64,000 bases of DNA, from NCBI GenBank assembly GCA_964016885.1, contig OZ024741.1, positions 112,096,001-112,160,000 on the forward strand, written 5' to 3'. Origin of the DNA: Eledone cirrhosa (lineage: Eukaryota). The translations under genes and the position numbers were made by a program. The notes below the pieces were generated by a model. The model ran no database searches. It saw nothing but the letters and a program-made list of their open reading frames with translations, and had not been told where the DNA came from. Numbering within the stretch: the first letter of the stretch is position 1; each line of letters begins with the position of its first letter. Below, piece after piece: positions 22,212 through 64,000 of this stretch.

Positions 22212-22848
22212 TATATATATTGATATATATATATATATATATATATGAGTATGTGTGTGTTGTATGTTTTTTAATTTTTTTAAATTATGCACAACGCATT
22301 TCTTATTTTAGTCATGTTGCTCCAGTAAAACTTTTGCTTTCCAGCCACAAGGTCTTGGGTTCTAAACTTACATCTGTTTCTGTAAACAGTTATTTCTCCA
22401 AAGTTTCTCAGACATATAATCCTGTACATTTATTTAATTATATCCTAGGAATCTATCATTAAAATATCATTCTTACCGTTAATCATTTTCTGGGTTTAAA
22501 ACAAACTATAGGGTTTCTCATATGCAAACCATAAATTTATCAAAACGTCAATTTCCCGGACTGTATGATTGTTCGTATATCCAGTAATACTTTTATATAT
22601 GGTTTAGTAATCCTGAACTCTAAATATTAAATACATTCAACTCTATTGCCGTCATTATTGACAGCACTTGTCTAATAGCATTTGTATATGAACCAAGCAA
22701 AATACAGTCTCCATTATATTATGCCATCGGAGAATTCAATTAGGAACTTGAAACGGCTGATTCAATTGTACGTCTAATATGTATGCATGTGTGTGTGTAA
22801 GAAAATGAGGTTTTTTTTTTTAAAAGAAATGTCCCATACTGGTGAAAA

Positions 22849-23101
22849 TATAAGGAAAGGAAATTGAAAATGCAACTGGAGTCTTTTAAGAATATGTATA
22901 TATTTACTTTACCTGTTTCACTGTTCTTATGATTTTCAAAAGTAAAATTGAGATGGAGAGTTTGTGTTTCTGTTGTGACAAACCACAACAGAAACACAAA
23001 CCCTCCATCTCAATTTTACTTTTGAGAATCATAAGAACAGTGAAACCGGTAAAGTAAATGAAGATTCTTAAAAGACTACAGTTGCATATTCAATTTATTT
23101 T

Positions 23102-23108
<7 letters not shown>
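22849..23108. repeat. Imperfect ~130 bp-arm palindrome containing an HHR-like motif
   Basis: Arms centred on tgttgtg-acaaac-cacaaca (~22980); (TA)n on the right; a third diverged motif copy at ~23420-23457. Confidence 0.85.
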
Positions 23109-23137
<29 letters not shown>

Positions 23138-31275: not shown

Positions 31276-31900
31276 CTGTAAAGGATTCTATCCAGGGTTC
31301 TAACGACTCGTCCACTTCTCCGCCGAGTTATCGTATCACCTCATTCCTTGTTATCAAGGAATCGTATTATATACGTGTTCAGCGAAATTATATTCCAATG
31401 TTTGTAATGTCACTTTCTAAAGAACCCCAGGAATATTAATTCCTCTAATAGTAATTGACTTTTATTTCTGCTTTTCCACATCATAACTTCCGCTCTATAG
31501 ATGACTGGACACGTACAGAGATATCTTTTATCGTTATTTACACATGGGTGTCAAATGTATCGAGAGTATATATATGCATACATAAATATTACACACACAC
31601 ACACACACATATATATATATGTATATATATATAGCGGCGATGAATTAGTTTTGCGAGGTTTTTTATATGAAATCGTGTGTCGAAACAGATATTGTTATAT
31701 TTGGGGAGGGTCATATTTGCGTAATATTGCCAGAATTAATAACAGAACACACTCACTGTTTGGTTGGTTTTCGCTTCTCGCTGTCTTTTATATATATATA
31801 TCTGCGATCTAACTTACTCGGTCCTCAATGTTGCCATTGACTGACCGGCGGTCAAAAATAATACAGATACAATATAGACACAAACACATATATATAGTTT

Positions 31901-31957
31901 ACATAATTTACATAAATCTTTCGTTGCACATCTGCAACATCGTCAGTGGTGTTATAT
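31901..31957 (-). ncRNA. Hammerhead ribozyme motif in PLE 3' UTR/pLTR
   Basis: Exact mirror of 37358-37414. Confidence 0.7.
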
Positions 31958-32214
31958 TCATTGTTCCTCCTGCTGTGTTGTATGTCTACGCCATTTTTTT
32001 TGTTCAGTCTGTCTATATATTTATTTATTTATTTGCTTGTTTGTTTATCTTATTTTATTTTGTCTTCTTTGCGCATGCGTTTGCGTGTGTGTATAGTGTT
32101 ATGTGTGATGTGTGACTAGTGTGTATAGTGTTGTGTCTGCTGGGTGACTAGTGTGTGTTCATGTGCTTGTGTATGTATTGATTTATCTTATTTTATTTTA
32201 TTTTATTTACTTAT

Positions 32215-35200
32215 TTATACTTCTCTTAGGTCAGTGTTGTTTGTTTGGGTGTTGTTGTTGTTCCACTCATTCTTTCTGTTTAGCTTTGGTCTTCTAATTT
32301 CTATTTCACTGGCCTCTCTGATTTGCCTATCTGCTGGGTCATTCCTATGTTTAGATATTATTCTAATTTCTATGTTGTCTATGTTACCGTCATGTTGTTG
32401 TCTAGCATGTTCGTATAGTACTGACCCGTTTTTTCGTCCTTTTAGTTCCCCCCAGTGTTGGTCTATCCTTTCACCTATGCTACGAGCTGTCTCACCTATG
32501 TATGTTGTTGTCATGTTTCTGCAAGTACCCTCTGTACATTTTATGCTATAGACTACGTTTCTAGTTTTACAGTTTATCCGGGGGTTCACCTTACATATGA
32601 TACATTTCCTATTGGTACAGTGGGTTTTCTTAAAAGGGTAGGTTTTGCTGATCAGGGATTTTATGGTGGTTCCTGGCTTTTCTACCACCTTTATTTTTAA
32701 GTGGGTCTTTCTCAGGGCCTTTCTACACTGGTTAGCTAATTTCCCTCCAGGGGTGGCGTCCACAAACATGACACTCTGATATCTCTGGTTGTCGTACCAT
32801 GATGTGGCCTTCCCTATCTTATGTCTAGCCCTATCTAAGCTATTCCATGATTTGCTCCTGTATAGTGGGCAAATTCCTTTCATGTCCAGTTCTATGAGGG
32901 TCTTATACTTTTCCATGGCTCCTTCGTATACTCTGACTCTGTCTCTTTGGTTGTAGCCAGAGAACTGCATGCGGTTGATGAAGTGTTGGATGTGTCCTTC
33001 CATTTCTGTTGGGTCGCACATGCTGGACACATTCTTCATCACTCGTACCAAATCTGCGATCAGAATATTAAACTTAGCACTACTGGACATTGCTGAGTTT
33101 TTGAGTATCAGGTATTTGGAGGCCATGGGTTTAGCATAGTGTGAGTGGAGAATTTGGGCTCTCTCGTCTATAGTGTTAATCCAGAGTTCTGTGTCTAATA
33201 CAGGTAGTCTATTGTTAGGGTGTTTGGAAGGGAAGTCTATAGTTACAGTTATACTCTGGTGTATGGAATTAGCTATCTGCTGGATGCGTTCCATCGTGCT
33301 ACGTTCTAAATCAAACTTGTTAGTGCTCTCTAGTGGGGGTGTTCTTATAACTATATTGATATCGTCTACATAACGAGAGTACATGATGAGGTCTATGGAG
33401 CTTTCATTAAGGAGATCTTTAAGTCTCCTTTCCCACCATACCATGAAAAGGTTGGCAACATCACCAGCTATGCTGACGCCAATGGCTGCTCCCTCATTTT
33501 GGGTGTAGATTTTCTCATTGAACTTAAATATGTGGCCCTTTAGGGTAGTTTTGATACTAGCCCCTATTGCATGTGCGACCATTTTTCTTACCTGATCAGT
33601 GTTTTGGGGGGTCCGTATAGCTTTGGTCCACCCAATCCACCTTCCTATGGGAGTCTTTTTAGCCATTGAGGTTATGGTGGGGGGTCTACCTCTTATAGGT
33701 CTACTAGGGCAGAAACATCTAAGGTCATGGCTGTCTAGGTAGTCAGTGTCGTAGGTAAGTCTAAGTAGGAGGCCCAGTTCGTCTGTGTCGACGTCGCAGA
33801 ACTCCACCTCACTCTCAATGATCATCTCCACACATCTTTTCACAGCAAAATCAATGTTAATGGATGGGTACAGTGACACCACATCCATGCTGCCTATTAT
33901 GCAGTTGGATAGGCTCCTGTTTTTGTTGCACTCACTGATTCTGCTGAGGAGGTCCTCTGTACTTTCACATACATCTGGGGACATCTTGATTATGGGGCGT
34001 ATAACCATTGAGAGGAAGTAGGAGATCCTGTAGTTGCTAGCTATATTAGCTCCGCATACGGGTCTTGTTGGTGGTCCTGTTGTCGGGTCGTCGACTGTCT
34101 TGTGGTCTTTGCGGAGCCCATACAAGGGTGGTATGCCATTGTTAGACGCCTGGAAGTTGTTGGCAGTGCGTCTGCTTGGCTTTAGGATGTCAGTCCACAT
34201 CATCATGTGAGCATTGAGGATTTTTTCTCTCCCATCGTGTGTTAGTTGTGCAACTTCGCTCGTGTTGGTGATGTGGGGTTGCATTGCCTCGATGTAGTTC
34301 GGCATGCTATCTATTGACATCCTACCAGACTTATCTGTGGGTAGACACACTACCTCACCATCCCTTGTGCGCTGCTTGAGGCTAACCAAGCCTTCTACAG
34401 GTTTTATCCCAAGTTGTTGGGCCTCTGGTCTGCTCTGTCTCATAGTGTACCTGTCTACTACTTGTCTAATCTTATTTCTAGCTATGGTGAACTGTGCCTC
34501 CGTCTCGTCATCTATTTGCTGTGGTATGCAAACTCTTTTATTAAAGGGTAACCTCGTAGGATAGATATTACCCATCTTATATGTTTTGTCAGCTGGGTTG
34601 AAAAATAGTTTCTCTAAGGGGTTGTCGTTATTTCTATCGTCATAGTTGTGTGTGTTGCTATTATTGTTATCATGGTGGTTGTTGTTGTTTCTATCATTAG
34701 CATTAATATTATTATTGTTATGATTGCTAGATGTATTGTTGTTTACTTCACCGTTATTGTTGTTGTTGTTACTGCTATTTCTACCATTGTGGTTGTTACT
34801 ATTATTATGTTTCTTGTTTTTGTTGATGTTGCTACATGTACTATTTCCATTATTACCACTGTGGTTATTGTTGTTGTTGTTGTTCGTATTGTTACCGTTA
34901 TTACTACTGTGGTCACTGTTGCTGTGTCTGTGGTTAACGTTTCTATTATTATTATTATTGTGGTTGTTGTTGTTCTGTCTATCGCTAGTATTATTGCCAT
35001 TATCACTATTTCTCACTTTCCTGCCATTGTTATGGTTATGGCTGTTATTTCTATACCCAGAGTTATTGTTTATATTACTACTACCGTTATTATTGTTGTT
35101 GTTGTTTACCTTTGCATTCCAACGTATTTTTGTGAAACACTTTTCCAGCTCCGTTTTGCATTCCATAGGGTTAATCTTTTTGTAGATGGCAAATTTTGGT

Positions 35201-35640
35201 GGTAACTTTAGGATTTGTTGTTCTTGTTCACTGATTAAAGTGTTCCCGTAGATATTTACTGTGTGGTCATTGGTAAATTCTTCCGGTAGTTTTACATCAC
35301 TCATACGGATGTTGTCGATGTTATCTGGGTATTTTTGAGAATATTCGATTTTCCTTTCTTGTAGTTTTTTCTTATTCATCCATTCTAATTTCTTCTTGAA
35401 ATGCCTACAGCATTCGTTTTGAGCATATTTCGTTTCGCGTCGGATGACGCTCATGAAGTCATCTCTCTCGTTTGCTGTGATGAGATTTCGGATTTCCTTA
35501 CCGTTGATGCGTTTTTGTCTGTAGAGTGCGTTGACTTTTGTGTATGTTGTTCTTTTCATATTAACTGTTATTGTGTGTTTTAGCCGTTCAGCTTGTGTTT
35601 TGTTCAATAATAAATTATTTACTTGTTTTGATATGGCTAA
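32215..35640 (-). CDS. PLE polyprotein: RT + C-terminal GIY-YIG endonuclease, 5'-truncated
   Basis: Motifs PTDKSG, PPLYGLRKDHK, PTRPVC, GSMDVVSLYPSI, YTQNEGAAIG..ANLFM, YSRYVDDI, LPVLD; Cys-rich linker; VVYSIKC..C..TYIGET.R..ER..QH; RQIREA..P.LN. The first 25 codons of the listed ORF (35641-35715) belong to the inverted arm. Confidence 0.93.
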   Translation of the reverse strand, partial: LAISKQVNNLLLNKTQAERLKHTITVNMKRTTYTKVNALYRQKRINGKEIRNLITANERDDFMSVIRRETKYAQNECCRHFKKKLEWMNKKKLQERKIEYSQKYPDNIDNIRMSDVKLPEEFTNDHTVNIYGNTLISEQEQQILKLPPKFAIYKKINPMECKTELEKCFTKIRWNAKVNNNNNNNGSSNINNNSGYRNNSHNHNNGRKVRNSDNGNNTSDRQNNNNHNNNNNRNVNHRHSNSDHSSNNGNNTNNNNNNNHSGNNGNSTCSNINKNKKHNNSNNHNGRNSSNNNNNNGEVNNNTSSNHNNNNINANDRNNNNHHDNNNSNTHNYDDRNNDNPLEKLFFNPADKTYKMGNIYPTRLPFNKRVCIPQQIDDETEAQFTIARNKIRQVVDRYTMRQSRPEAQQLGIKPVEGLVSLKQRTRDGEVVCLPTDKSGRMSIDSMPNYIEAMQPHITNTSEVAQLTHDGREKILNAHMMMWTDILKPSRRTANNFQASNNGIPPLYGLRKDHKTVDDPTTGPPTRPVCGANIASNYRISYFLSMVIRPIIKMSPDVCESTEDLLSRISECNKNRSLSNCIIGSMDVVSLYPSINIDFAVKRCVEMIIESEVEFCDVDTDELGLLLRLTYDTDYLDSHDLRCFCPSRPIRGRPPTITSMAKKTPIGRWIGWTKAIRTPQNTDQVRKMVAHAIGASIKTTLKGHIFKFNEKIYTQNEGAAIGVSIAGDVANLFMVWWERRLKDLLNESSIDLIMYSRYVDDINIVIRTPPLESTNKFDLERSTMERIQQIANSIHQSITVTIDFPSKHPNNRLPVLDTELWINTIDERAQILHSHYAKPMASKYLILKNSAMSSSAKFNILIADLVRVMKNVSSMCDPTEMEGHIQHFINRMQFSGYNQRDRVRVYEGAMEKYKTLIELDMKGICPLYRSKSWNSLDRARHKIGKATSWYDNQRYQSVMFVDATPGGKLANQCRKALRKTHLKIKVVEKPGTTIKSLISKTYPFKKTHCTNRKCIICKVNPRINCKTRNVVYSIKCTEGTCRNMTTTYIGETARSIGERIDQHWGELKGRKNGSVLYEHARQQHDGNIDNIEIRIISKHRNDPADRQIREASEIEIRRPKLNRKNEWNNNNTQTNNTDLREV

Positions 35641-35732
35641 AACCTCAATGGCTAAAAAGACTCCCATAGGAAGGTGGATTGGGTGGACCAAAGCTATACG
35701 GACCCCCCAAAACACTGATCAGGTAAGATAAA

Positions 35733-37100
35733 ATGGTCGCACATGCAATAGGGGCTAGTATCAAAACTACCCTAAAGGGCCACATATTTAAGTTCAATGA
35801 GAAAATCTACACCCAAAATGAGGGAGCAGCCATTGGCGTCAGCATAGCTGGTGATGTTGCCAACCTTTTCATGGTATGGTGGGAAAGGAGACTTAAAGAT
35901 CTCCTTAATGAAAGCTCCATAGACCTCATCATGTACTCTCGTTATGTAGACGATATCAATATAGTTATAAGAACACCCCCACTAGAGAGCACTAACAAGT
36001 TTGATTTAGAACGTAGCACGATGGAAAGCATCCAGCAGATAGCTAATTCCATACACCAGAGTATAACTGTAACTATAGACTTCCCTTCCAAACACCCTAA
36101 CAATAGACTACCTGTATTAGACACAGAACTCTGGATTAACACTATAGACGAGAGAGCCCAAATTCTCCACTCACACTATGCTAAACCCATGGCCTCCAAA
36201 TACCTGATACTCAAAAACTCAGCAATGTCCAGTAGTGCTAAGTTTAATATTCTGATCGCAGATTTGGTACGAGTGATGAAGAATGTGTCCAGCATGTGCG
36301 ACCCAACAGAAATGGAAGGACACATCCAACACTTCATCAACCGCATGCAGTTCTCTGGCTACAACCAAAGAGACAGAGTCAGAGTATACGAAGGAGCCAT
36401 GGAAAAGTATAAAACCCTCATAGAACTGGACATGAAAGGAATTTGCCCACTATACAGGAGCAAATCATGGAATAGCTTAGATAGGGCTAGACATAAGATA
36501 GGGAAGGCCACATCATGGTACGACAACCAGAGATATCAGAGTGTCATGTTTGTGGACGCCACCCCTGGAGGGAAATTAGCTAACCAGTGTAGAAAGGCCC
36601 TGAGAAAGACCCACTTAAAAATAAAGGTGGTAGAAAAGCCAGGAACCACCATAAAATCCCTGATCAGCAAAACCTACCCTTTTAAGAAAACCCACTGTAC
36701 CAATAGGAAATGTATCATATGTAAGGTGAACCCCCGGATAAACTGTAAAACTAGAAACGTAGTCTATAGCATAAAATGTACAGAGGGTACTTGCAGAAAC
36801 ATGACAACAACATACATAGGTGAGACAGCTCGTAGCATAGGTGAAAGGATAGACCAACACTGGGGGGAACTAAAAGGACGAAAAAACGGGTCAGTACTAT
36901 ACGAACATGCTAGACAACAACATGACGGTAACATAGACAACATAGAAATTAGAATAATATCTAAACATAGGAATGACCCAGCAGATAGGCAAATCAGAGA
37001 GGCCAGTGAAATAGAAATTAGAAGACCAAAGCTAAACAGAAAGAATGAGTGGAACAACAACAACACCCAAACAAACAACACTGACCTAAGAGAAGTATAA
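35733..37100 (+). CDS. Inverted duplicate of the PLE C-terminal RT part and GIY-YIG (lacks RT motif A)
   Basis: 455 aa identical to the C-terminus of the minus-strand ORF except one R>S; a 1 nt T insertion at 35729 creates an upstream stop. Confidence 0.85.
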   Translation: MVAHAIGASIKTTLKGHIFKFNEKIYTQNEGAAIGVSIAGDVANLFMVWWERRLKDLLNESSIDLIMYSRYVDDINIVIRTPPLESTNKFDLERSTMESIQQIANSIHQSITVTIDFPSKHPNNRLPVLDTELWINTIDERAQILHSHYAKPMASKYLILKNSAMSSSAKFNILIADLVRVMKNVSSMCDPTEMEGHIQHFINRMQFSGYNQRDRVRVYEGAMEKYKTLIELDMKGICPLYRSKSWNSLDRARHKIGKATSWYDNQRYQSVMFVDATPGGKLANQCRKALRKTHLKIKVVEKPGTTIKSLISKTYPFKKTHCTNRKCIICKVNPRINCKTRNVVYSIKCTEGTCRNMTTTYIGETARSIGERIDQHWGELKGRKNGSVLYEHARQQHDGNIDNIEIRIISKHRNDPADRQIREASEIEIRRPKLNRKNEWNNNNTQTNNTDLREV

Positions 37101-37357
37101 ATAAGTAAATAAAATAAAATAAAATAAGATAAATCAATACATACACAAGCACATGAACACACACTAGTCACCCAGCAGACACAACACTATACACACTAGT
37201 CACACATCACACATAACACTATACACACACGCAAACGCATGCGCAAAGAAGACAAAATAAAATAAGATAAACAAACAAGCAAATAAATAAATAAATATAT
37301 AGACAGACTGAACAAAAAAAATGGCGTAGACATACAACACAGCAGGAGGAACAATGA

Positions 37358-37414
37358 ATATAACACCACTGACGATGTTGCAGATGTGCAACGAAAGATT
37401 TATGTAAATTATGT
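37358..37414 (+). ncRNA. Hammerhead ribozyme motif (minimal type I) in PLE 3' UTR/pLTR
   Basis: CTGACGA (37369)-T-GTTGCA-gatg-TGCAAC-GAAA (37393)-GATT-TA. Perfect 6 bp stem II; interrupted stem I (atataa..ca / tg..ttatgt). Confidence 0.7.
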
Positions 37415-37618
37415 AAACTATATATATGTGTTTGTGTCTATATTGTATCTGTATTATTTTTGACCGCCGGTCAGTCAATGGCAACATTGAGGACCGAGTA
37501 AGTTAGATCGCAGATATATATATATAAAAGACAGCGAGAAGCGAAAACCAACCAAACAGTGAGTGTGTTCTGTTATTAATTCTGGCAATATTACGCAAAT
37601 ATGACCCTCCCCAAATAT

Positions 37619-37705
<87 letters not shown>

Positions 37706-40999: not shown

Positions 41000-43900
41000 G
41001 ACGAACTCATCATGGCAAAACGTATGTTTCCTTCGACCAAATCGCAACTACAACTATTGTATACACTGGAGCTACGATCTCAATAAAGATTTATATGAAG
41101 CATACAAACTATCAGACCCCCAAAAGTTCTGTTTTATGCAAAGGCTAAAAACTTTCTGGAACTCCAAACACACAGAATTAGACTTTTCCCAAAAACATTT
41201 AAATGAACAGGCAAAACGTATCATTAGATGTAAATTGATACATCTAACGGAACTGAGTGACACTATTGAAGACAATCATTCCATTTCCACTGATGAACGG
41301 AGAGAATGGTCAGCTGAATCTAGCAGTAAACAGCACACCAACAACGTAGCTGAAATCCATAATTCTACTGTACAAAAAGAACACCAAAAACTTGTCGACA
41401 TATTACAAGTGATATGGGATGATGTTTCAAGAGGTACACAGACTTAATGTGAGTAACAGACCACACAACACCAGAATAAGTAAACAACCCACTAAATTGG
41501 AATTGGAAGTAGTAAATGAAATAACTGACACTTATCTGAAGGTCACACGATTGATAGGTGTGGAAACGACATATGAATTGCTTAATATTTTGTTATATGT
41601 TCCAGCTGTCACACTGCTATCCTATAATAAACAACTAAAACCACGCAACCAATATACAAACAGAAAGTCTGAACCAGCGTGGATGTGTAATTTAAAACAC
41701 AAAATTTTGTCTCTGAGACGAAGTATCGCACAGATCACTGTAATTATAAAATGCAACACAGAGCGCAACTTCACGCGACATCAGGAAGACGTAACAAAAT
41801 ACTAGAGAGGCGATTTAGAAATACAAGATTTAAAACTCTAAACTCCAAACTACACCAGTTGAAACAACAACTCACAGCTGCAACAGAAAGACTAAAATAT
41901 AAGTCAATAGCACATAAACGGCAAGTGCTAAATAGATTATTTGCCAGAGATCCTAAATCAGTTTATCGCAGCTTCAATGGGAAAAGCTCACTCTCTGTAA
42001 ATGACACCCCTACAAAAGAACAGGTTGAGAGCTACTGGAGATCTGTATGGGAAACGAATGACGGATTTAGCAAACAAACTAAATGGCTAAAATAACTGGA
42101 ACAGGAATACTGCCTGCATGTCCAGACAAAACAATATAACATAGATGGGTCAATACTGGAAACAGCTCTGCAGAAAATGTCGAATAGGAAATCACCAGGC
42201 CCAGACCTCATAACAGGATACTGGTTGAAGAATTTCACCTTCTATCGGCAAGATCTCATACGGCTGTTCAGAGAAACCATCAAAGGCACACAAGAAGTTC
42301 CCCAATGGTTATCAACTGCCACTACTCTCCTCATCCAAAAAAATACCCAGACCACCCTTGCTAAAAGTTACCGCCCAATAGCCTGCCAGAACATCATGTA
42401 TAGATTATACACTGGGTGCCTTAATCTGTTCTTACAGGATCATTGGTCCACAACAAAATTATAACACCTGGGCAAGCTGGTGAAAAGAGGGAGGTGTGGG
42501 GCTGCATAGATCACCTACTAAAAAATAAAATGATACAGGAAAAAACAGCAATGAATCGCTGGAACATGACTGTGGTGTGGCTGGACTATCAGAAGGCTTT
42601 TGATAGTGTACCTCATGGGTGGATTATTAAGGCTTTACAGTTAGCCAAAGTCCCACTAGTAGCTGTTCTTGAACGCCTGACCAAGAACTGGTACACCAAT
42701 TTGATCCTTAGGGCTGAGAAGGAGCAAATTAAGACTGACACAATACACTACCAGAACGGCATCTTTCCGGTTGATAGCTTATCAGTGCTGCTTTTCGTCC
42801 TCTCACTAAACCCACTATTATACCTGCTCACAAAACAAAGTGGTTATGGAAGTGGGTCCAGAAGTATCTCCCATCTTTTCTTTGTTGATGACCTAAAGTT
42901 GTATGGGCCAAATATCAACTACATTAAAAAACAATTGGACCTCATTACACAATTTTCTGCAGACATCAGAATGAAATTTGGTGAGTCCAAATGTAAATAT
43001 TTGACAGTAAAACGTGGAAGAGTTGTGCCCTCCTCTGGAAATCTAGAGATGAACGGCTTGACAATACAACCTCTACATTTCAGGTGACAACTACCGATAT
43101 CTTGGTCAGGATGAGAATGTCAGATATGATGGACCCATAAATAAGGAGAGAACCAGAACTAAATACCCCAGGAGAGTAAAGAAAATATGGTCATCAGAAA
43201 TATCAGCGTACAACAAATACATTGCCCACAATACTTATGCTGTTCCAATCCTAACGCCAACATTTGGTCTGCTGAACTGGTCATTGTAAGAAATAAGTGA
43301 GATGGATGTAAGAACTCGCAAGCTTCTCAGTGTTACTGGAAACTTTAACATCAATGGTTATGTGAATAGGCTATACTTCTCACGAAAGGAAGGTGACCGT
43401 GGTCTAAAATCCATATTAACAACATATGAGACCCGAATAGTAACACTGAAGCAACATCTTCAGCAGAAGAAAAGAGTCAGCAACCATCTTGACCAGGTCT
43501 ATGAGCACGAAGAAAATAATATCATTAGGATAGCCACTGATCTGGAGGAGAGATATGGAATAAGGCCTGATATATATCTCTCTCCTAGGGAAATTGGAAG
43601 ATCCTATTCAATGTTCGAACAAGATAAAAAACATGGATGATCAATGTACAGAGAAAGTTGTGCATGGGTACCTGAGACGAAACAACACAGACCATAGAGG
43701 GGATAAATCATTCAAAAATCCTGGCATGGAGTTCCGACAAGTTTATGACATCCCACCTTGAAGGATATCTCTATGCAATACAGGAACAAGAAATCCTACC
43801 AAATATCTGCCATACAAAAGAGGAGGGCCATTAGTTGACAATAATTGTAGGCTTTGTAAAATAAAGATCGAAGATATTAGCCACGTTGTTGCCAACTGCG

Positions 43901-44490
43901 AAAGAATGTCGTCTCGCTACTACCCCCCTATGAGACACGATGTGATAGCTATAACCCCCTGGAGCGCACTCAGGAAAACAAAATTAAAAACAAATGAGGA
44001 AGAATATGTTGAGACAGATGGCACTAAAGAATACTGGTGGAACCTGAAAATAAAAACTGCCACCAAATTAAAGCACAACCGCCCTGATATTGTTGTTTGG
44101 GACCACACATTGAAAATGTGCTCTGTTGTAGAGATCAGCTGCTCACTTGACGTCAACGTTGTAAGCAAAATACAAGAGAAGGACATCTATGGGCCATTGA
44201 TGAGGAGTTTGCAGATCCAGTATCCAAGATACACGCTCAGCTTTATACCCATCATTATTGGAGCTACAGGTTATATACCAACCCGCTTGGACCAAAGTAT
44301 AACTGAACTTGGATTTGTGGACAAAGAGCGCAGCTCCCTAATTCATAGACTACAAATGGCTGCGATAGCTGGCCCCTTCAACATTTGCAAAACATTCTTG
44401 CGATTCAAGGGATGATAATTTCCTTTCTTTTACAACCTTGCCACCAGGAAGGTGGCCGGTCAAATTTCTCGAAATTAAGAGAAAGCGAGA
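41000..44490 (+). mobile_element. Near full-length R4/Dong-like non-LTR retrotransposon, pseudogenised
   Basis: Collinear broken ORFs 41136-44415: KSPGPDLITGYWLK, YRPIAC, WLDYQKAFDSVPH, GIFPVDSLS, HLFFVDDLKLY, RLY..RKEGDRGL, CRLC..EDISHVVANC..RHD, NRPDIVVWD..VVEISC. Followed by a (TACA)-type repeat. Confidence 0.92.
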
Positions 44491-46877: not shown

Positions 46878-47402
46878 ATACTACTCCCTAAATAGTAAGC
46901 TTATAGACGGTCCATATTGACTGCTATTTCTAGTGGCAATTTAAACTCCACATTTTCCCCCATGTACAAATATTCACCTTATTAGTATATCTACACATGT
47001 GCGTGCAATATTATTATTTTTTTCTTGCATCACGCTGGTTCGATGAGAATGAACTTATTTCTCTCAACGAGTATTTATAATTTTCCCTATACCTTGCAGA
47101 ATCCCCTTTGATGAAAAGTTGTTCTGTTAACGGTAGCCATCTCAAACTATTGGAAAAGTCAGCGTTATTCTTCAGCTTGGAAACTACAGTAAGGAATTTT
47201 AGAGAAGCCTTCTAGCTTTAGGTTACTTGACTAAGAGTATATCCCTAGCGAAAGATGCTTGTGAAGTGTTCTATTAGATTACTTTATTGGATTTATCCCT
47301 CAGTGATTTTGATATGACGTTCAATATGTGTTTGCTTCTCTGAATGAGATGTTTTTAGCGACCCCTTTTCATTGAAATGTTACGTATATACGTGACAATT
47401 TA

Positions 47403-47405
<3 letters not shown>
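46876..47405 (+). mobile_element. Probable PLE 3'-UTR remnant with HHR-like motif
   Basis: Lies between two (TA)n tracts; cct-TTGATGA (47108)-aAAGTTG...CAGCTTg-GAAA-C-TACA-G-TA-agg (47194). Confidence 0.45.
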
Positions 47406-47445
<40 letters not shown>

Positions 47446-47452
<7 letters not shown>

Positions 47453-49545
47453 TAACAGATTAAAGTTTAAGCAAAGAATCGCTACTTTCACTCTTAACGG
47501 GATCTTCTGAAATATGCTACTAACGAGCATATTTTCAACGACCATTCCACATATTACAATGAAGCTCTTGCTCGGAGTGGATTTGTCGATAAGGTAGCAT
47601 ATACAGAGTACGACAATAGACCTAGAAGAAATAGATCCCGACGCATTATATGGTATAACCCACCTTATAATATGGAGGCGGCCACACCATTAGCTAAGAT
47701 CTTTCTCTCCTTTATTACGAAGCATTTTCCCCCTACACTTAAATATAGTAACATTTTTAATAGAAATACTATTAAAATTTCTTACTCTACGACTCCTAAC
47801 CTTGCAGATAACATCACAGCTTCTAATTTAGCTAAACTACCTAGCCGTAGGAACACGTGCAACCCTGTAATTAGTACTAACTGTAATTGTAGGAATCGGG
47901 TTGACTGCCCCCTATCCGGGAAATGCCTCTCTAGTAACATTGTCTACAAATGTAAGGTTGAAACACCCACGTCCCGTAGGGCCTACATAGGGTTAATCGC
48001 CAATAGATTCAAGCAGCGTCTTTACATGCATACCCGTTCTTTTCGTTACCCTCTAAGAAGGAATATGACGTCACTTTTAGCTTATATCTGGAGTCTAAAA
48101 GACAACCACACCCAATATAAGTTACACTGGGAGATCCTAGCTAGGGCTAGATCGTATAACGGAAATAAAAGACCATGTGACCTCTGCGCCGCTGAGGCCC
48201 TGGAAATACTCTACGCCACAGACCACATCTTAAACAAAAAATCTGAGGCAATTTCGGCTTGTAAACATAAATTGCACAAAACTTTCCTGTATTACAGCCC
48301 CACATTATACCCTAACGGATAGTACGATCTATACGCGGATATTTTACGTCTTGATGTGGTAGCTAAGTATATGTTATGTTTATGCCATTACTTATTTGTA
48401 TAGGTAAGTATATATTACCTGTATGTTTTGTGAAGGTACGTATAATTTCTCATATGTATATTTGATTGTATATGTTATGGCATATATTTTATATATTCTG
48501 GTACATATGCTTTTGGTTATGTGTATACGTGAGTTTTGCGTCTATGTGAGTATGCGGGTGTGTGTATATGTGTACTTCGTGTTTTGGTTGACGTACGTCT
48601 CCGAACATATGTGTATTTACATGTAGGTATGTGTGTGCGCTTGTTATATACGTATTTATTTACTTATATACGTTTATTTAATTATTTGTATACACGCACA
48701 CACACACATATTTATATGTGCGTGTATTTGTATACCTATGGCGAGTGTTTTCGCGTATGCTTGTACGTCTCCGAACATATGTGTATTTACATGTAGGTAT
48801 GTGTGTGCCCTTGTTATATACGTATTTATTTATTTATATACGTTTATTTAATTATTTGTATACACGCACACACACATATTTATATGTGCGTTTATTTGTA
48901 TACCTATGGTGAGTGTTTTCGCGTATGCTTGTGTATGCACGTATATGGATGCGTGTATGCATTTATTTAATTTCAATTGCCTTTGTATTTTATTTACTTT
49001 ATTCTTAACTCTGAAGCCGAGAATCATTCGGTTTCCTAGTTAGAATTTTAGTCTACGACTTCACCTATACCATTTACGTGGTTTTGTCTTTGCGTGCAAT
49101 TGTTCTCCACGCTCCAGCTATGACGTATTATCTTCGTTTTTTCCGCTCATTGCCAGAGAACTTCTCTATGAACCACCTAATAGAATATTAGTCTACGACT
49201 TCTTTTACACCATAAACGTGGTTTTGTCTTTGTGTGTAATTGTTTTTAACCGCTCCAAATAATGACGTATTATATTCGTTTTTCCCGTTCTTTGCCAGGG
49301 AACGTTTCCACGAACCAAAGCATCGTCTTCCTGTCTTCCTCCGGTTGCAACGATTTTTGAAATATTCACTTCTGCGTTCACAGATTGACTTTGTTAGTTT
49401 CAGAAGATCCCGTTAAGGGTGAAAGCAGCGATTCTTTGCTTACACTTTAATCTGTTATTTTAATAAATAATTTCTCTACGGTTCTTATATATTTGATATA
49501 TATTTATCCTTAACGAGCCCTCTTTGGATTTTAGTCTTCAAATTT
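47446..49545 (+). mobile_element. Second, unrelated 5'-truncated PLE with a short 5' inverted segment
   Basis: 47446-47512 is the reverse complement of 49398-49464 (3 mismatches). GIY-YIG ORF present; (TA)n/(ATT)n flanks; tandem duplications of ~170 bp (48593/48763) and ~140 bp (49047/49188) in the 3'UTR. Confidence 0.85.
47516..48322 (+). CDS. PLE RT thumb/linker + GIY-YIG endonuclease fragment (Hydra-clade-like)
   Basis: Frame is open from 47516: YNEALARSGF..RRIIWYNPPY..IKISYS..CNCRNRVDCPLSGKCLSSNIVYKC..AYIGL..RFKQR..H..SF..CDLC..E..LNKKSE..CKH. It lacks the CCHH pattern of the first PLE. Confidence 0.8.
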   Translation, partial: ATNEHIFNDHSTYYNEALARSGFVDKVAYTEYDNRPRRNRSRRIIWYNPPYNMEAATPLAKIFLSFITKHFPPTLKYSNIFNRNTIKISYSTTPNLADNITASNLAKLPSRRNTCNPVISTNCNCRNRVDCPLSGKCLSSNIVYKCKVETPTSRRAYIGLIANRFKQRLYMHTRSFRYPLRRNMTSLLAYIWSLKDNHTQYKLHWEILARARSYNGNKRPCDLCAAEALEILYATDHILNKKSEAISACKHKLHKTFLYYSPTLYPNG

Positions 49546-49591
49546 ATTATTATTACTATATATTATTACTATATATTATTACTATATAAGT

Positions 49592-49666
<75 letters not shown>

Positions 49667-61902: not shown

Positions 61903-61965
<63 letters not shown>

Positions 61966-62172
61966 CAAAGGAAATGTGGTAAGGAACCAGATAGACCATA
62001 ACGCACGAAAGTACCCAATACTTAGGGTAGTAGAGTGGGTAATAGGAACAAGTATGACCCTGACGGCAGAGCTCAAGCCCTTTCGACGGCTAATTCTATT
62101 TAAGCGGTGGCTAAAGGCTACATGCTAAAAATCTGTTTTCCTGTGAATACTCACATTAACATACACACACGC

Positions 62173-62337: not shown

Positions 62338-62645
62338 AACCAGCGGGTCCTGTCAGAAGCAACCGCCTCCAATTGATCCGGTTGGATCCCCAAAAAGAGA
62401 CCAGTCGAGCTCATGGATGTTATCCAACCATCTTGTTCGGGGTTTACCTCTGGGACTCCTGCCGACTGGTTTTGCTCGTAAAATTTGTCCAGCGGTTCTT
62501 TCCTGACACATGCCCATAGTATCCGATCTTTACCCCAAGGAGCCTTCCGAGGAACCACATTTCGGCTGCTTGTATTCGCGATCGAATTCTTTCGGTCATT
62601 ACCCAAGATTCATATCCATAGGTAAGGTTTGGCACGAATACCAAG
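62338..62645 (-). mobile_element. RTE-clade LINE fragment with internal deletions
   Basis: [51 protein letters not shown]. Confidence 0.8.
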
Positions 62646-62688
62646 TTCTGTATATATATATATAATCTATCTATCCATCTATCTATCT

Positions 62689-62783
<95 letters not shown>

Positions 62784-62811
62784 GTCTATATATCTATAGA
62801 TATAATATATA

Positions 62812-62960
62812 GGCCCCGAACAAAATGGTTGGATAACATCCATAAGCCTGACTGTTCTCCCTTGGGGATCCAGCCGGATGAATTGGAGACGGTTGCTTCT
62901 GACTGGACCCACTCGTTAGAGTGTTTGAGGACTCTGCCCCCACGACCCTCAGAAGAATAT
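62812..62960 (+). mobile_element. RTE-clade LINE 3' end
   Basis: RPRTKWLDNIHK..LGIQPDELETVASD; homologous and opposite in orientation to 62338-62445. Confidence 0.75.
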
Positions 62961-63432: not shown

Positions 63433-63629
63433 GCCGCCGGAAATATATATATATGTGTGTGTGTATACAATTTTTAATATAGAAATGACTTCTACAGGAC
63501 TAGAACTGTTTCATTCGAAGGAAATTATCCTGATGATTTCCTTCGAATGAAACAGTTCTAGTCCTGTAGAAGTCATTTCTATATTAAAAATTGTATACAC
63601 ACACACATATATATATATATTTCCGGTGG

Positions 63630-63630
<1 letters not shown>
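63433..63630. repeat. Near-perfect ~200 bp palindrome whose centre is an HHR core
   Basis: Arms pair from gccgccgg to ccggtggc; CTGATGA (63530)..GAAAC (63549)..GTC (63561). Confidence 0.92.
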
Positions 63631-63680
<50 letters not shown>

Positions 63681-63723
63681 GATATTAAATAAATGGAAAC
63701 TATATTTATAAAACCATATCTAT

Positions 63724-64000
63724 TTCATTATATATATTTCAGGGATATCATATTAACAATATGTTATGCCTTCTTCAGACAAAATACAATATAGACAGTT
63801 TTATAGATAAATAGATTTGACATACCGTTCAACATCGACTTGTATTTGAAAAAGTTGATTTGGCAGTGATTTTTTCAAATACAAGTCGATGTTGAACGGT
63901 ATGTCAAATCTATTTATCTATAAAACTGTCTATATTGTATTTTGTCTGAAGAAGGCATAACATATTGTTAATATGATATCCCTGAAATATATATAATGAA
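63724..64000. repeat. Perfect inverted repeat (arms at least 130 bp, 17 bp spacer) containing an HHR core; runs off the window
   Basis: 63724-63853 is the reverse complement of 63871-64000; CTGAAGA (63946)-AGG..catatt-gtt-aatatg..CCT-GAAA (63984)-TATA-TA. Confidence 0.92.

Follow-up and report, generated by a model that had tools for sequence, protein, structure and literature searches.

Minimal ribozyme-bearing palindromes in (TA)n of Eledone cirrhosa as probable head-to-head insertions of PLEs

At one end of a 64,000-nucleotide stretch of the 3.0-Gb Eledone cirrhosa genome (G000:C2:112096001-112160000, hereafter the window), two small ORF-less palindromes lie side by side next to (TA)n, each with a CTGANGA motif. 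The question raised by this locus is whether such fold-backs are products of PLE insertion or ribozyme hairpins mobilised as a unit, both of which had been put forward in an initial annotation made from the sequence of the window. The neighbouring palindromes proved to be real, P1 spanning 63433-63631 and P2 folding 63679-63869 onto the sequence from 63870 onward, and the CTGANGA motifs start at 63530 and 63946, as had been claimed. A third, older example, previously placed at 22849-23108, was located at 22797-23109 (P3), and its fold-back is more diverged. P1, P2 (63679-64128) and P3 all adjoin (TA)n (Table 1). The description of P1 and P2 as essentially perfect holds for the P2 arms, which are identical at 175 of 175 compared bases, but P2 is asymmetric, its right arm passing the end of the left arm by about 83 nt at the outer end and reaching 64128, beyond the window edge. 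In P1, the element arms are identical over 63 nt, and about 30 nt of flank differ by one substitution and a 2-nt TA indel. The analysis presented below led us to propose, with a probability of about 0.8, that the palindromes are minimal head-to-head PLE insertions, each arising from one dual-primed event that often ran to the capped start of the RNA, with the copies joined back to back.

Table 1. Features of the three fold-backs of the window. Element positions (- or +) take C3 of the hammerhead core as their reference.
Position	Feature	Strand	Details
22797..22973	P3 left arm, tailed	-	tail ~52 nt; third family, layout as in the other two
22974..23109	P3 right arm, tail-less	+	from -48; hammerhead-like motif with U3-A8 core (U3 at 23022)
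63433..63462	host flank	.	13 nt unique + (TA)n(TG)n, copied inverted at 63599-63631
63463..63527	P1 left arm	-	pLTR piece of the P1-family PLE, ~+4 (within hammerhead core) to +68
63528..63598	P1 right arm	+	pLTR piece, -2 to +68
	P1 right-arm hammerhead	+	C3 63530, G12 63549, cleavage-site nucleotide (GUA) 63568; stem I 5' strand missing
63599..63631	inverted copy of left host flank	.	differs by one substitution and a 2-nt TA indel; probably left by secondary recopying of one arm from the other
63632..63678	(TA)n tract separating P1 and P2	.	
63679..63869	P2 left arm, tail-less	-	young-PLE pLTR, -91 to ~+100; hammerhead C3 63778
63870..64000	P2 right arm, tailed	+	pLTR from -75, on past the window to 64128 (~+182)
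	P2 right-arm complete type I hammerhead	+	C3 63946, G12 63984, cleavage-site nucleotide 63995, stem I 3' strand 63996-64003

Hammerhead motifs of the fold-backs

The bare CTGANGA..GAAA pattern is no evidence by itself, because shuffled sequences reach similar counts (mean 5.8 and maximum 12 in 30 shuffles, compared with 10 in the window). The Rfam-type search that had been suggested as a check matched no hammerhead family in the window: none appeared among the 96 matches at E<=1, which comprised only microRNA-like hairpins below the gathering scores. Single-sequence folding of four isolated motifs gave z values near 0, no better than shuffles. The hammerhead reading rests on covariation within families, a comparative argument, and compensatory changes that support the predicted fold were found in both the P2-type and the P1 families. 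In 24 sequences of the P2 type, 97% of the cells are paired, compared with 37-59% in slid controls of the alignment, and five of the six stem II pairs are changed on both sides; in the P1 family, two stem I pairs are changed on both sides among 16 distinct rows picked for an intact stem I, the counts in both families being inflated by kinship among the sequences. Stem I of P1 also covaries between subfamilies, the stem II loop is hypervariable, and cleavage is predicted after GUA. The right-arm motif of P3 combines its U3-A8 core variant with a 7-bp stem I, a palindromic stem III and a weak stem II. The conserved G10.1-C11.1 pair is missing from P2, which has A-U (G-C in 4 of 24 relatives), and from P1, which has U and U.

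A hammerhead core had been claimed for both neighbouring palindromes. The right arm of P2 indeed holds a complete type I hammerhead, but in the P1 copy of the window the fold centre falls on the 5' strand of stem I, which is therefore missing. Moreover, the RNA of the P2 palindrome is predicted to reach -282 kcal/mol as a long hairpin, compared with -186 kcal/mol when the hammerhead is forced. A fold-back transcript would thus bury the ribozyme, which, together with the loss of stem I in P1, makes ribozyme activity in the P1 and P2 copies of the window unlikely.

In Schistosoma, opposite-strand minimal hammerhead pairs 100-700 bp apart were ascribed to truncated PLEs (Cervera and De la Pena 2014, PMC4209133). 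Like the motifs described in the accessible part of that paper, those of Eledone are of type I, with a short or palindromic helix III and an extra base after A9, and the U3-A8 core of P3 is a variant set out there. Unlike them, P1 and P2 do without the conserved pair at 10.1-11.1, and P1 has a 4-bp helix III, a 3-bp helix II and a hypervariable loop.

Parent elements of the arms

The PLE insertions form a continuous range of sizes, with P2 at its short end. A 24-base motif of P2 has 7,285 matches in the genome with at most one mismatch, and by hand count the first 100 of them include 32 pairs that face outward, separated by 76 bp to 4.9 kb, seven of them by less than 200 bp. Long pairs contain, between or beside their arms, an ORF of at least 720 aa (L199, L198, L200 and L215-L217) with RT motifs, a four-Cys linker and GIY-YIG-type motifs (YVG/RYNNH); the parent is young and has near-intact ORFs, and in L205, L215 and L216 the tailed arm continues into the ORF start. 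A Cys-rich linker is, alongside RT phylogeny, a mark of the Neptune/Nematis clade, of which the P2 parent is a candidate member. Atlas neighbours of this ORF carry HTH_animal, DUF8422 and GIY-YIG, mostly in fewer than half of the cluster members, and a Pfam scan of the P2 parent matched no RT or GIY-YIG family, a PDB sequence scan being blank as well. The 3' ends of the P2 arms are bimodal, at about +100 or about +182, each pair having one end of either kind. No two of the 13 short P2 fold-backs shown have the same centre, each centre being derivable from two separate stops in a linear parent, and the base at core position 7 (N7; A or G in the family) agrees between the arms in 25 of 25 pairs. 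A search with the DNA of the right arm had first suggested that P2 spread as a unit; it returned only three candidates because it skips common words, and the pattern search overturned that suggestion.

The P1 family is older, with 12,149 exact genome matches to its 24-base motif. A sample of 70 loci in genome order was reduced to 59 by the removal of 11 duplicates, and 44 of the 59 were flagged as fold-backs. Long P1 copies reach about 330 nt further upstream, into a microsatellite-rich region, and walks upstream from them hit microsatellite and other insertions. At L219 a GIY-YIG fragment and a P1 pLTR are joined on one strand. When the DNA of a GIY-YIG fragment was used as query, 13 of the 30 loci returned had a P1 pLTR at most 1.5 kb away (a raw count that includes the query locus), and 12 of these 13 show the expected layout, with the pLTR either inverted upstream or in line downstream, most clearly in L303, L307 and L308. 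These arrangements support the view that the P1 arm is the pLTR of an older PLE whose RT + GIY-YIG ORF has decayed. An intact P1 parent ORF was not found in the searches or in the upstream walks from long copies, and none of 30 inspected matches, out of 172, to the P1 tail-to-ORF junction run into an ORF; for P3, no link to a parent ORF was found. An apparent P1 tandem on C8 was rejected as a junction, as it contained unrelated LINE ORFs. On the same contig, L256 and L257 (G000:C8:18190500-18208800) represent a repeated segment with a long intact RT frame of 1,129 aa, which we take to be RTE-like, and a C-terminal frame of 370 aa, presumably L1/Tx1-like. As to whether arms extend into GIY-YIG ORFs, a point raised by the initial annotation, the P2 arms are the pLTR of an RT + GIY-YIG element, and P1 is connected via a decayed ORF. 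The PLE origin of the palindromes can accordingly be regarded as nearly certain.

Pairs of the P1 family typically have one arm that reaches about +60 to +70 and another that reaches about +148, and 43 distinct centres were counted among 46 arm pairs. Loop II is identical within 28 of the 46 pairs, compared with 10.6% at random, and the median difference between the arms of a pair is 5 in 56 bases. Tails are one-sided, measuring about 83 nt in P2, about 80 nt in the P1 family and about 52 nt in P3, the P1 copy of the window having symmetric ends. In nearly all copies listed, the 3' ends adjoin (TA)n, (CA)n or (TC)n (raw tally). At L094:1419-1630 the arms of a P1-family pair differ at two loop II bases, which makes it a candidate insertion from two RNA templates. 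One P1-family copy lies inside a larger repeat that occurs many times on C1 (L068, L069, L070, L071, L073, L079, L084, L085, L132, L134 and L263) and shares flanks of more than 1 kb around that copy. At least four further families with the P2-type hammerhead, several of them present as short fold-backs, were observed in L018, L044, L133, L171, L190 and others, and the genome holds many such PLE families. Finally, L003:1600-1720, L009, L018 and L231 contain tail-to-tail inverted pairs across (TA)n that look like inverted duplications of element ends.

The window itself contains further elements. A large young PLE at 31632-37626 has a frame of 1,167 codons (32215-35718, minus strand) comprising RT, an Asn-rich insert, a Cys linker and a GIY-YIG-type end; its 3' part is accompanied by a nearly perfect inverted copy of 1.98 kb, arranged outward as in the fold-backs. 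Only the left arm has a tail, of about 55 nt, and hammerhead-like motifs lie at 37369 and 31946. This PLE gave the only RVT_1 match of the Pfam scan, below the cut-off. A PLE fragment at 47397-49596 carries an RT thumb + GIY-YIG frame (47498-48322) and inverted ends about 2 kb apart. At 62338-62903, two inverted copies of a multi-copy repeat, 87% alike over 105 nt and separated by (TCTA)n, form an older pair that is possibly an aged fold-back. Part of another repeat, very common and flanked by (TA)n, lies at 61965-62130 and includes a degenerate hammerhead-like motif; this repeat occurs as fold-backs in L015, L025 and L263. The frames at 41001-44415 are presumably decayed RT frames of LINE type, and we take the frame at 2-481 to be ORF1-like and of retroelement origin.

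Joining of the two arms

Canonical EN+ PLEs make complex insertions consisting of a pLTR, an adjacent inverted 5'-truncated copy and a one-sided tail, with a bias to (TA)n (Craig et al. 2021, PMC8557442), and the accessible text of that paper describes how PLEs form inverted structures as undefined. The Eledone fold-backs resemble the insertions depicted there in their layout, microsatellite target and pLTR hammerhead, and in a parent with RT and C-terminal GIY-YIG joined by a Cys-rich linker. They differ from what that text reports in that the unit is shrunk to arms of 70-270 nt and in that minimal copies with a sharp 5' boundary are the majority product in P1. The tails are also longer, 50-85 nt compared with the 30-40 bp described for PLEs. 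The protein of the Anolis Poseidon element PAc cuts an AT-rich target in vitro and extends both strands (Frangieh et al. 2024, PMC11167929), its tail being defined by two internal RT start sites near the pLTR-ORF junction at the 5' side of an uncleaved RNA template (PMC11167929). Two 3' end positions that match the tail and an AT-rich target are common to both systems, whereas the joining of two cDNAs, run-off at the cap and minimal fold-backs are absent from the Anolis work (PMC11167929).

Arms made of pLTR with their 3' ends facing outward into a microsatellite, two family-specific 3' ends, variants shared between arms and varying centres are all observed directly. In the mechanism that we propose, both ends of the cut (TA)n target would prime RT on the element RNA, one at each site, and the two arm 3' ends would correspond to two internal RT start sites, as in vitro for the Anolis Poseidon element. 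A start in the 3' pLTR would let the copies enter the UTR and ORF and stop at random, yielding long pairs; a start in the pLTR near the RNA 5' end would leave only 60-270 nt to copy, and run-off at the capped end would yield minimal pairs. At this point RT may copy the cap as an extra G, and the two cDNA ends would be joined via microhomology or filler. The hammerhead would be a passenger, uncleaved in the template, and a short transcript from the promoter of a solo pLTR would give the same product as the 5' pLTR of the full RNA. The fold-back copies lack the upstream promoter and are therefore probably dead on arrival.

The same PLE origin could be combined with a single cDNA that starts at the tail end, snaps back near the RNA 5' end and copies itself, the endonuclease resolving the second arm short of the tail. 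Such a course would agree with the variants shared by the arms of a pair, with L027 and L110, which turn exactly at stem I, and with the host flank that the P1 of the window and L022 carry into the second arm; EN-mediated resolution of the tail is suggested in the accessible text of PMC8557442. However, snap-back cannot prime centres that join full-length arms with a 1-nt spacer (L011, L076 and C1:106097375) or centres with filler (L113 and L210), and the protein of the Anolis element uses two start sites in extending both strands (PMC11167929). We regard snap-back as a possible but rather doubtful route, and on balance favour dual priming. Dual priming leaves unexplained the symmetric ends and copied host flank of the P1 of the window, L022 being similar (2 of 46 pairs). 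In this P1, both arms end at +68, share a variant present in 10 of 102 arms and are identical, unlike family pairs; in addition, 30 nt of the host DNA on the left recur on the right side. A later DNA fold-back probably regenerated one arm by copying the other.

Arm 5' ends and remaining readings

Among 103 P1 arms taken in genome order, 56 have their 5' ends at -10..0, 15 at -19..-11, 15 further upstream and 17 within the core. An intact stem I has 1,037 genome matches, and by hand count 70 of the first 100 break off at -7 or -8, whereas 30 go on as the parent. The first T of a TATA lies at -37 in most parent-type P1 copies. As transcription starts about 30 nt downstream of a TATA box, this spacing would place the P1 start at -7, a pyrimidine-purine step. 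In the P3 family, where most of the loci are best matches to the window arm, the T of the TATA box lies at -85, 23 of 42 5' ends fall at -44..-54, and the spacing from TATA to pile-up is 30-32 nt in both the P1 and P3 families. P2 shows a weaker cluster of 5' ends at -85..-99 around an initiator-like site, only 3 of 30 genome-order P2 arms end at -87..-99, and no TATA box was found at the expected place in P2; Drosophila Penelope is described, in the accessible part of PMC2377424, as having a TATA-less internal promoter. The arms of the window itself end off the proposed start, at -2 and about +4 in P1 and at -91 and -75 in P2. Strand-switch joints in independent contigs fall at -7 or close to it (X1: 1568-1594, three of them at 1575, which is -7).

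The base next to the arms also bears on the proposed start. In parent-type P1 arms, the base 5' of stem I (-8) is C in 29, T in 5, A in 1 and G in none, and among the first 100 of the 1,037 stem I matches 3 of 30 parent-type matches have G there. By contrast, a hand count of all 85 genome matches with eight A/T bases before -8, that is, of P1 arms abutting A/T flanks, gave G47 T18 A17 C3 at this position; an extra G in 47 of 85 arms compares with a matched background of 14.8% (p ~6e-18), and 44 of 82 remain when three arms explicable by the opposite arm are removed. No such signal was found in P2, where none of five arms ending at -89 has an unexplained G, or in P3, with one of five arms. In full-length L1 copies an extra 5' G is read as the m7G cap, which is also known for AMV RT (cited in PMC4038843). 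The P1 family resembles L1, as presented in the accessible part of that source, in having one G absent from parent DNA at the inferred transcription start. No report of PLE fold-backs ending at a capped start or of a cap-derived G in PLEs was found in a search of the openly accessible literature; one may be in print elsewhere.

These data suggest that P1-family arms are copied up to the RNA cap rather than being randomly truncated, and run-off at the transcription start site appears probable. The proposal of extreme PLE truncation products can be kept in so far as the palindromes are extreme products of PLE insertion, but many arms appear 5'-complete, ending at the likely transcription start. 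A broader idea is that PLE RT, primed at both ends of the cut target, routinely begins within the upstream pLTR and copies as far as the m7G cap, which would make thousands of fold-backs complete, cap-marked records of the transcription start; it has a little better than an even chance.

The pile-up of 5' ends might instead reflect a stall of RT at hammerhead stem I or at another RNA structure, and in P1 it does coincide with the 5' strand of stem I. Nevertheless, in P3 and P2 the pile-up precedes the core by about 53 and 89 nt, cDNA coming from the 3' side is already past the whole ribozyme at the pile-up, and a stall predicts neither the extra G nor the 30-32 nt TATA spacing in two families, all of which makes it unlikely.

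Mobilisation of a non-autonomous palindromic ribozyme element, transcribed as a unit, is far less probable, although the ends of three P2 copies are the same and their centres similar, four or five P1 loci have a GCCC-A-GGGC-type centre in common, and P1 copies linked to an ORF are far fewer than short ones. The centres of the three P2 copies differ, each being derivable from the linear parent, the recurring P1 centre is the product of two full-length arms, copies lack a TATA box, and the energies given above favour the long hairpin over the ribozyme. The ribozyme hairpin class of the initial annotation was abandoned on the ground that centres do not recur, neither in the 46 P1 pairs nor in the 13 short P2 fold-backs. 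Non-LTR retrozymes, which are head-to-tail tandem repeats thought to move via circular RNA (bioRxiv 10.64898/2026.07.22.740005), share with the fold-backs, as far as the accessible text of that preprint goes, the absence of ORFs, a type I hammerhead and a pLTR origin in PLEs. The fold-backs differ in being head-to-head pairs whose centres vary, and few tandem units occur among the loci listed.

The perfect P2 arms, and the failure to find in four runs any independent contig spanning the P1 or P2 locus, could point to an assembly or long-read fold-back artefact, which is very improbable given that most family pairs have diverged arms, that their unequal ends are fixed and that strand switches recur at matching positions in independent contigs. 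MITEs derived from DNA transposons, with terminal inverted repeats at TA sites, would also be small, ORF-less, inverted and TA-flanked, the palindrome ends sitting in (TA)n, where a TA target-site duplication blends with the repeat, but this reading is ruled out for practical purposes by arms continuous with RT + GIY-YIG ORFs, and the ends are unequal, sizes range from 76 bp to 4.9 kb and the hammerheads covary.

Taken together, the palindromes are ordinary PLE insertions of known geometry, and such PLE copies can be mislabelled as MITEs. Thousands of perfect hairpins might be a source of dsRNA. The TATA spacing and the extra G, which predict a start site and cap at -7 in P1 and at -53 in P3, are the one point that a specialist might follow. 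If run-off holds, the minimal copies would be complete run-off products, and if the cap reading is true, it would explain how inverted pLTRs are formed and would provide a genome-wide fossil map of PLE promoters.
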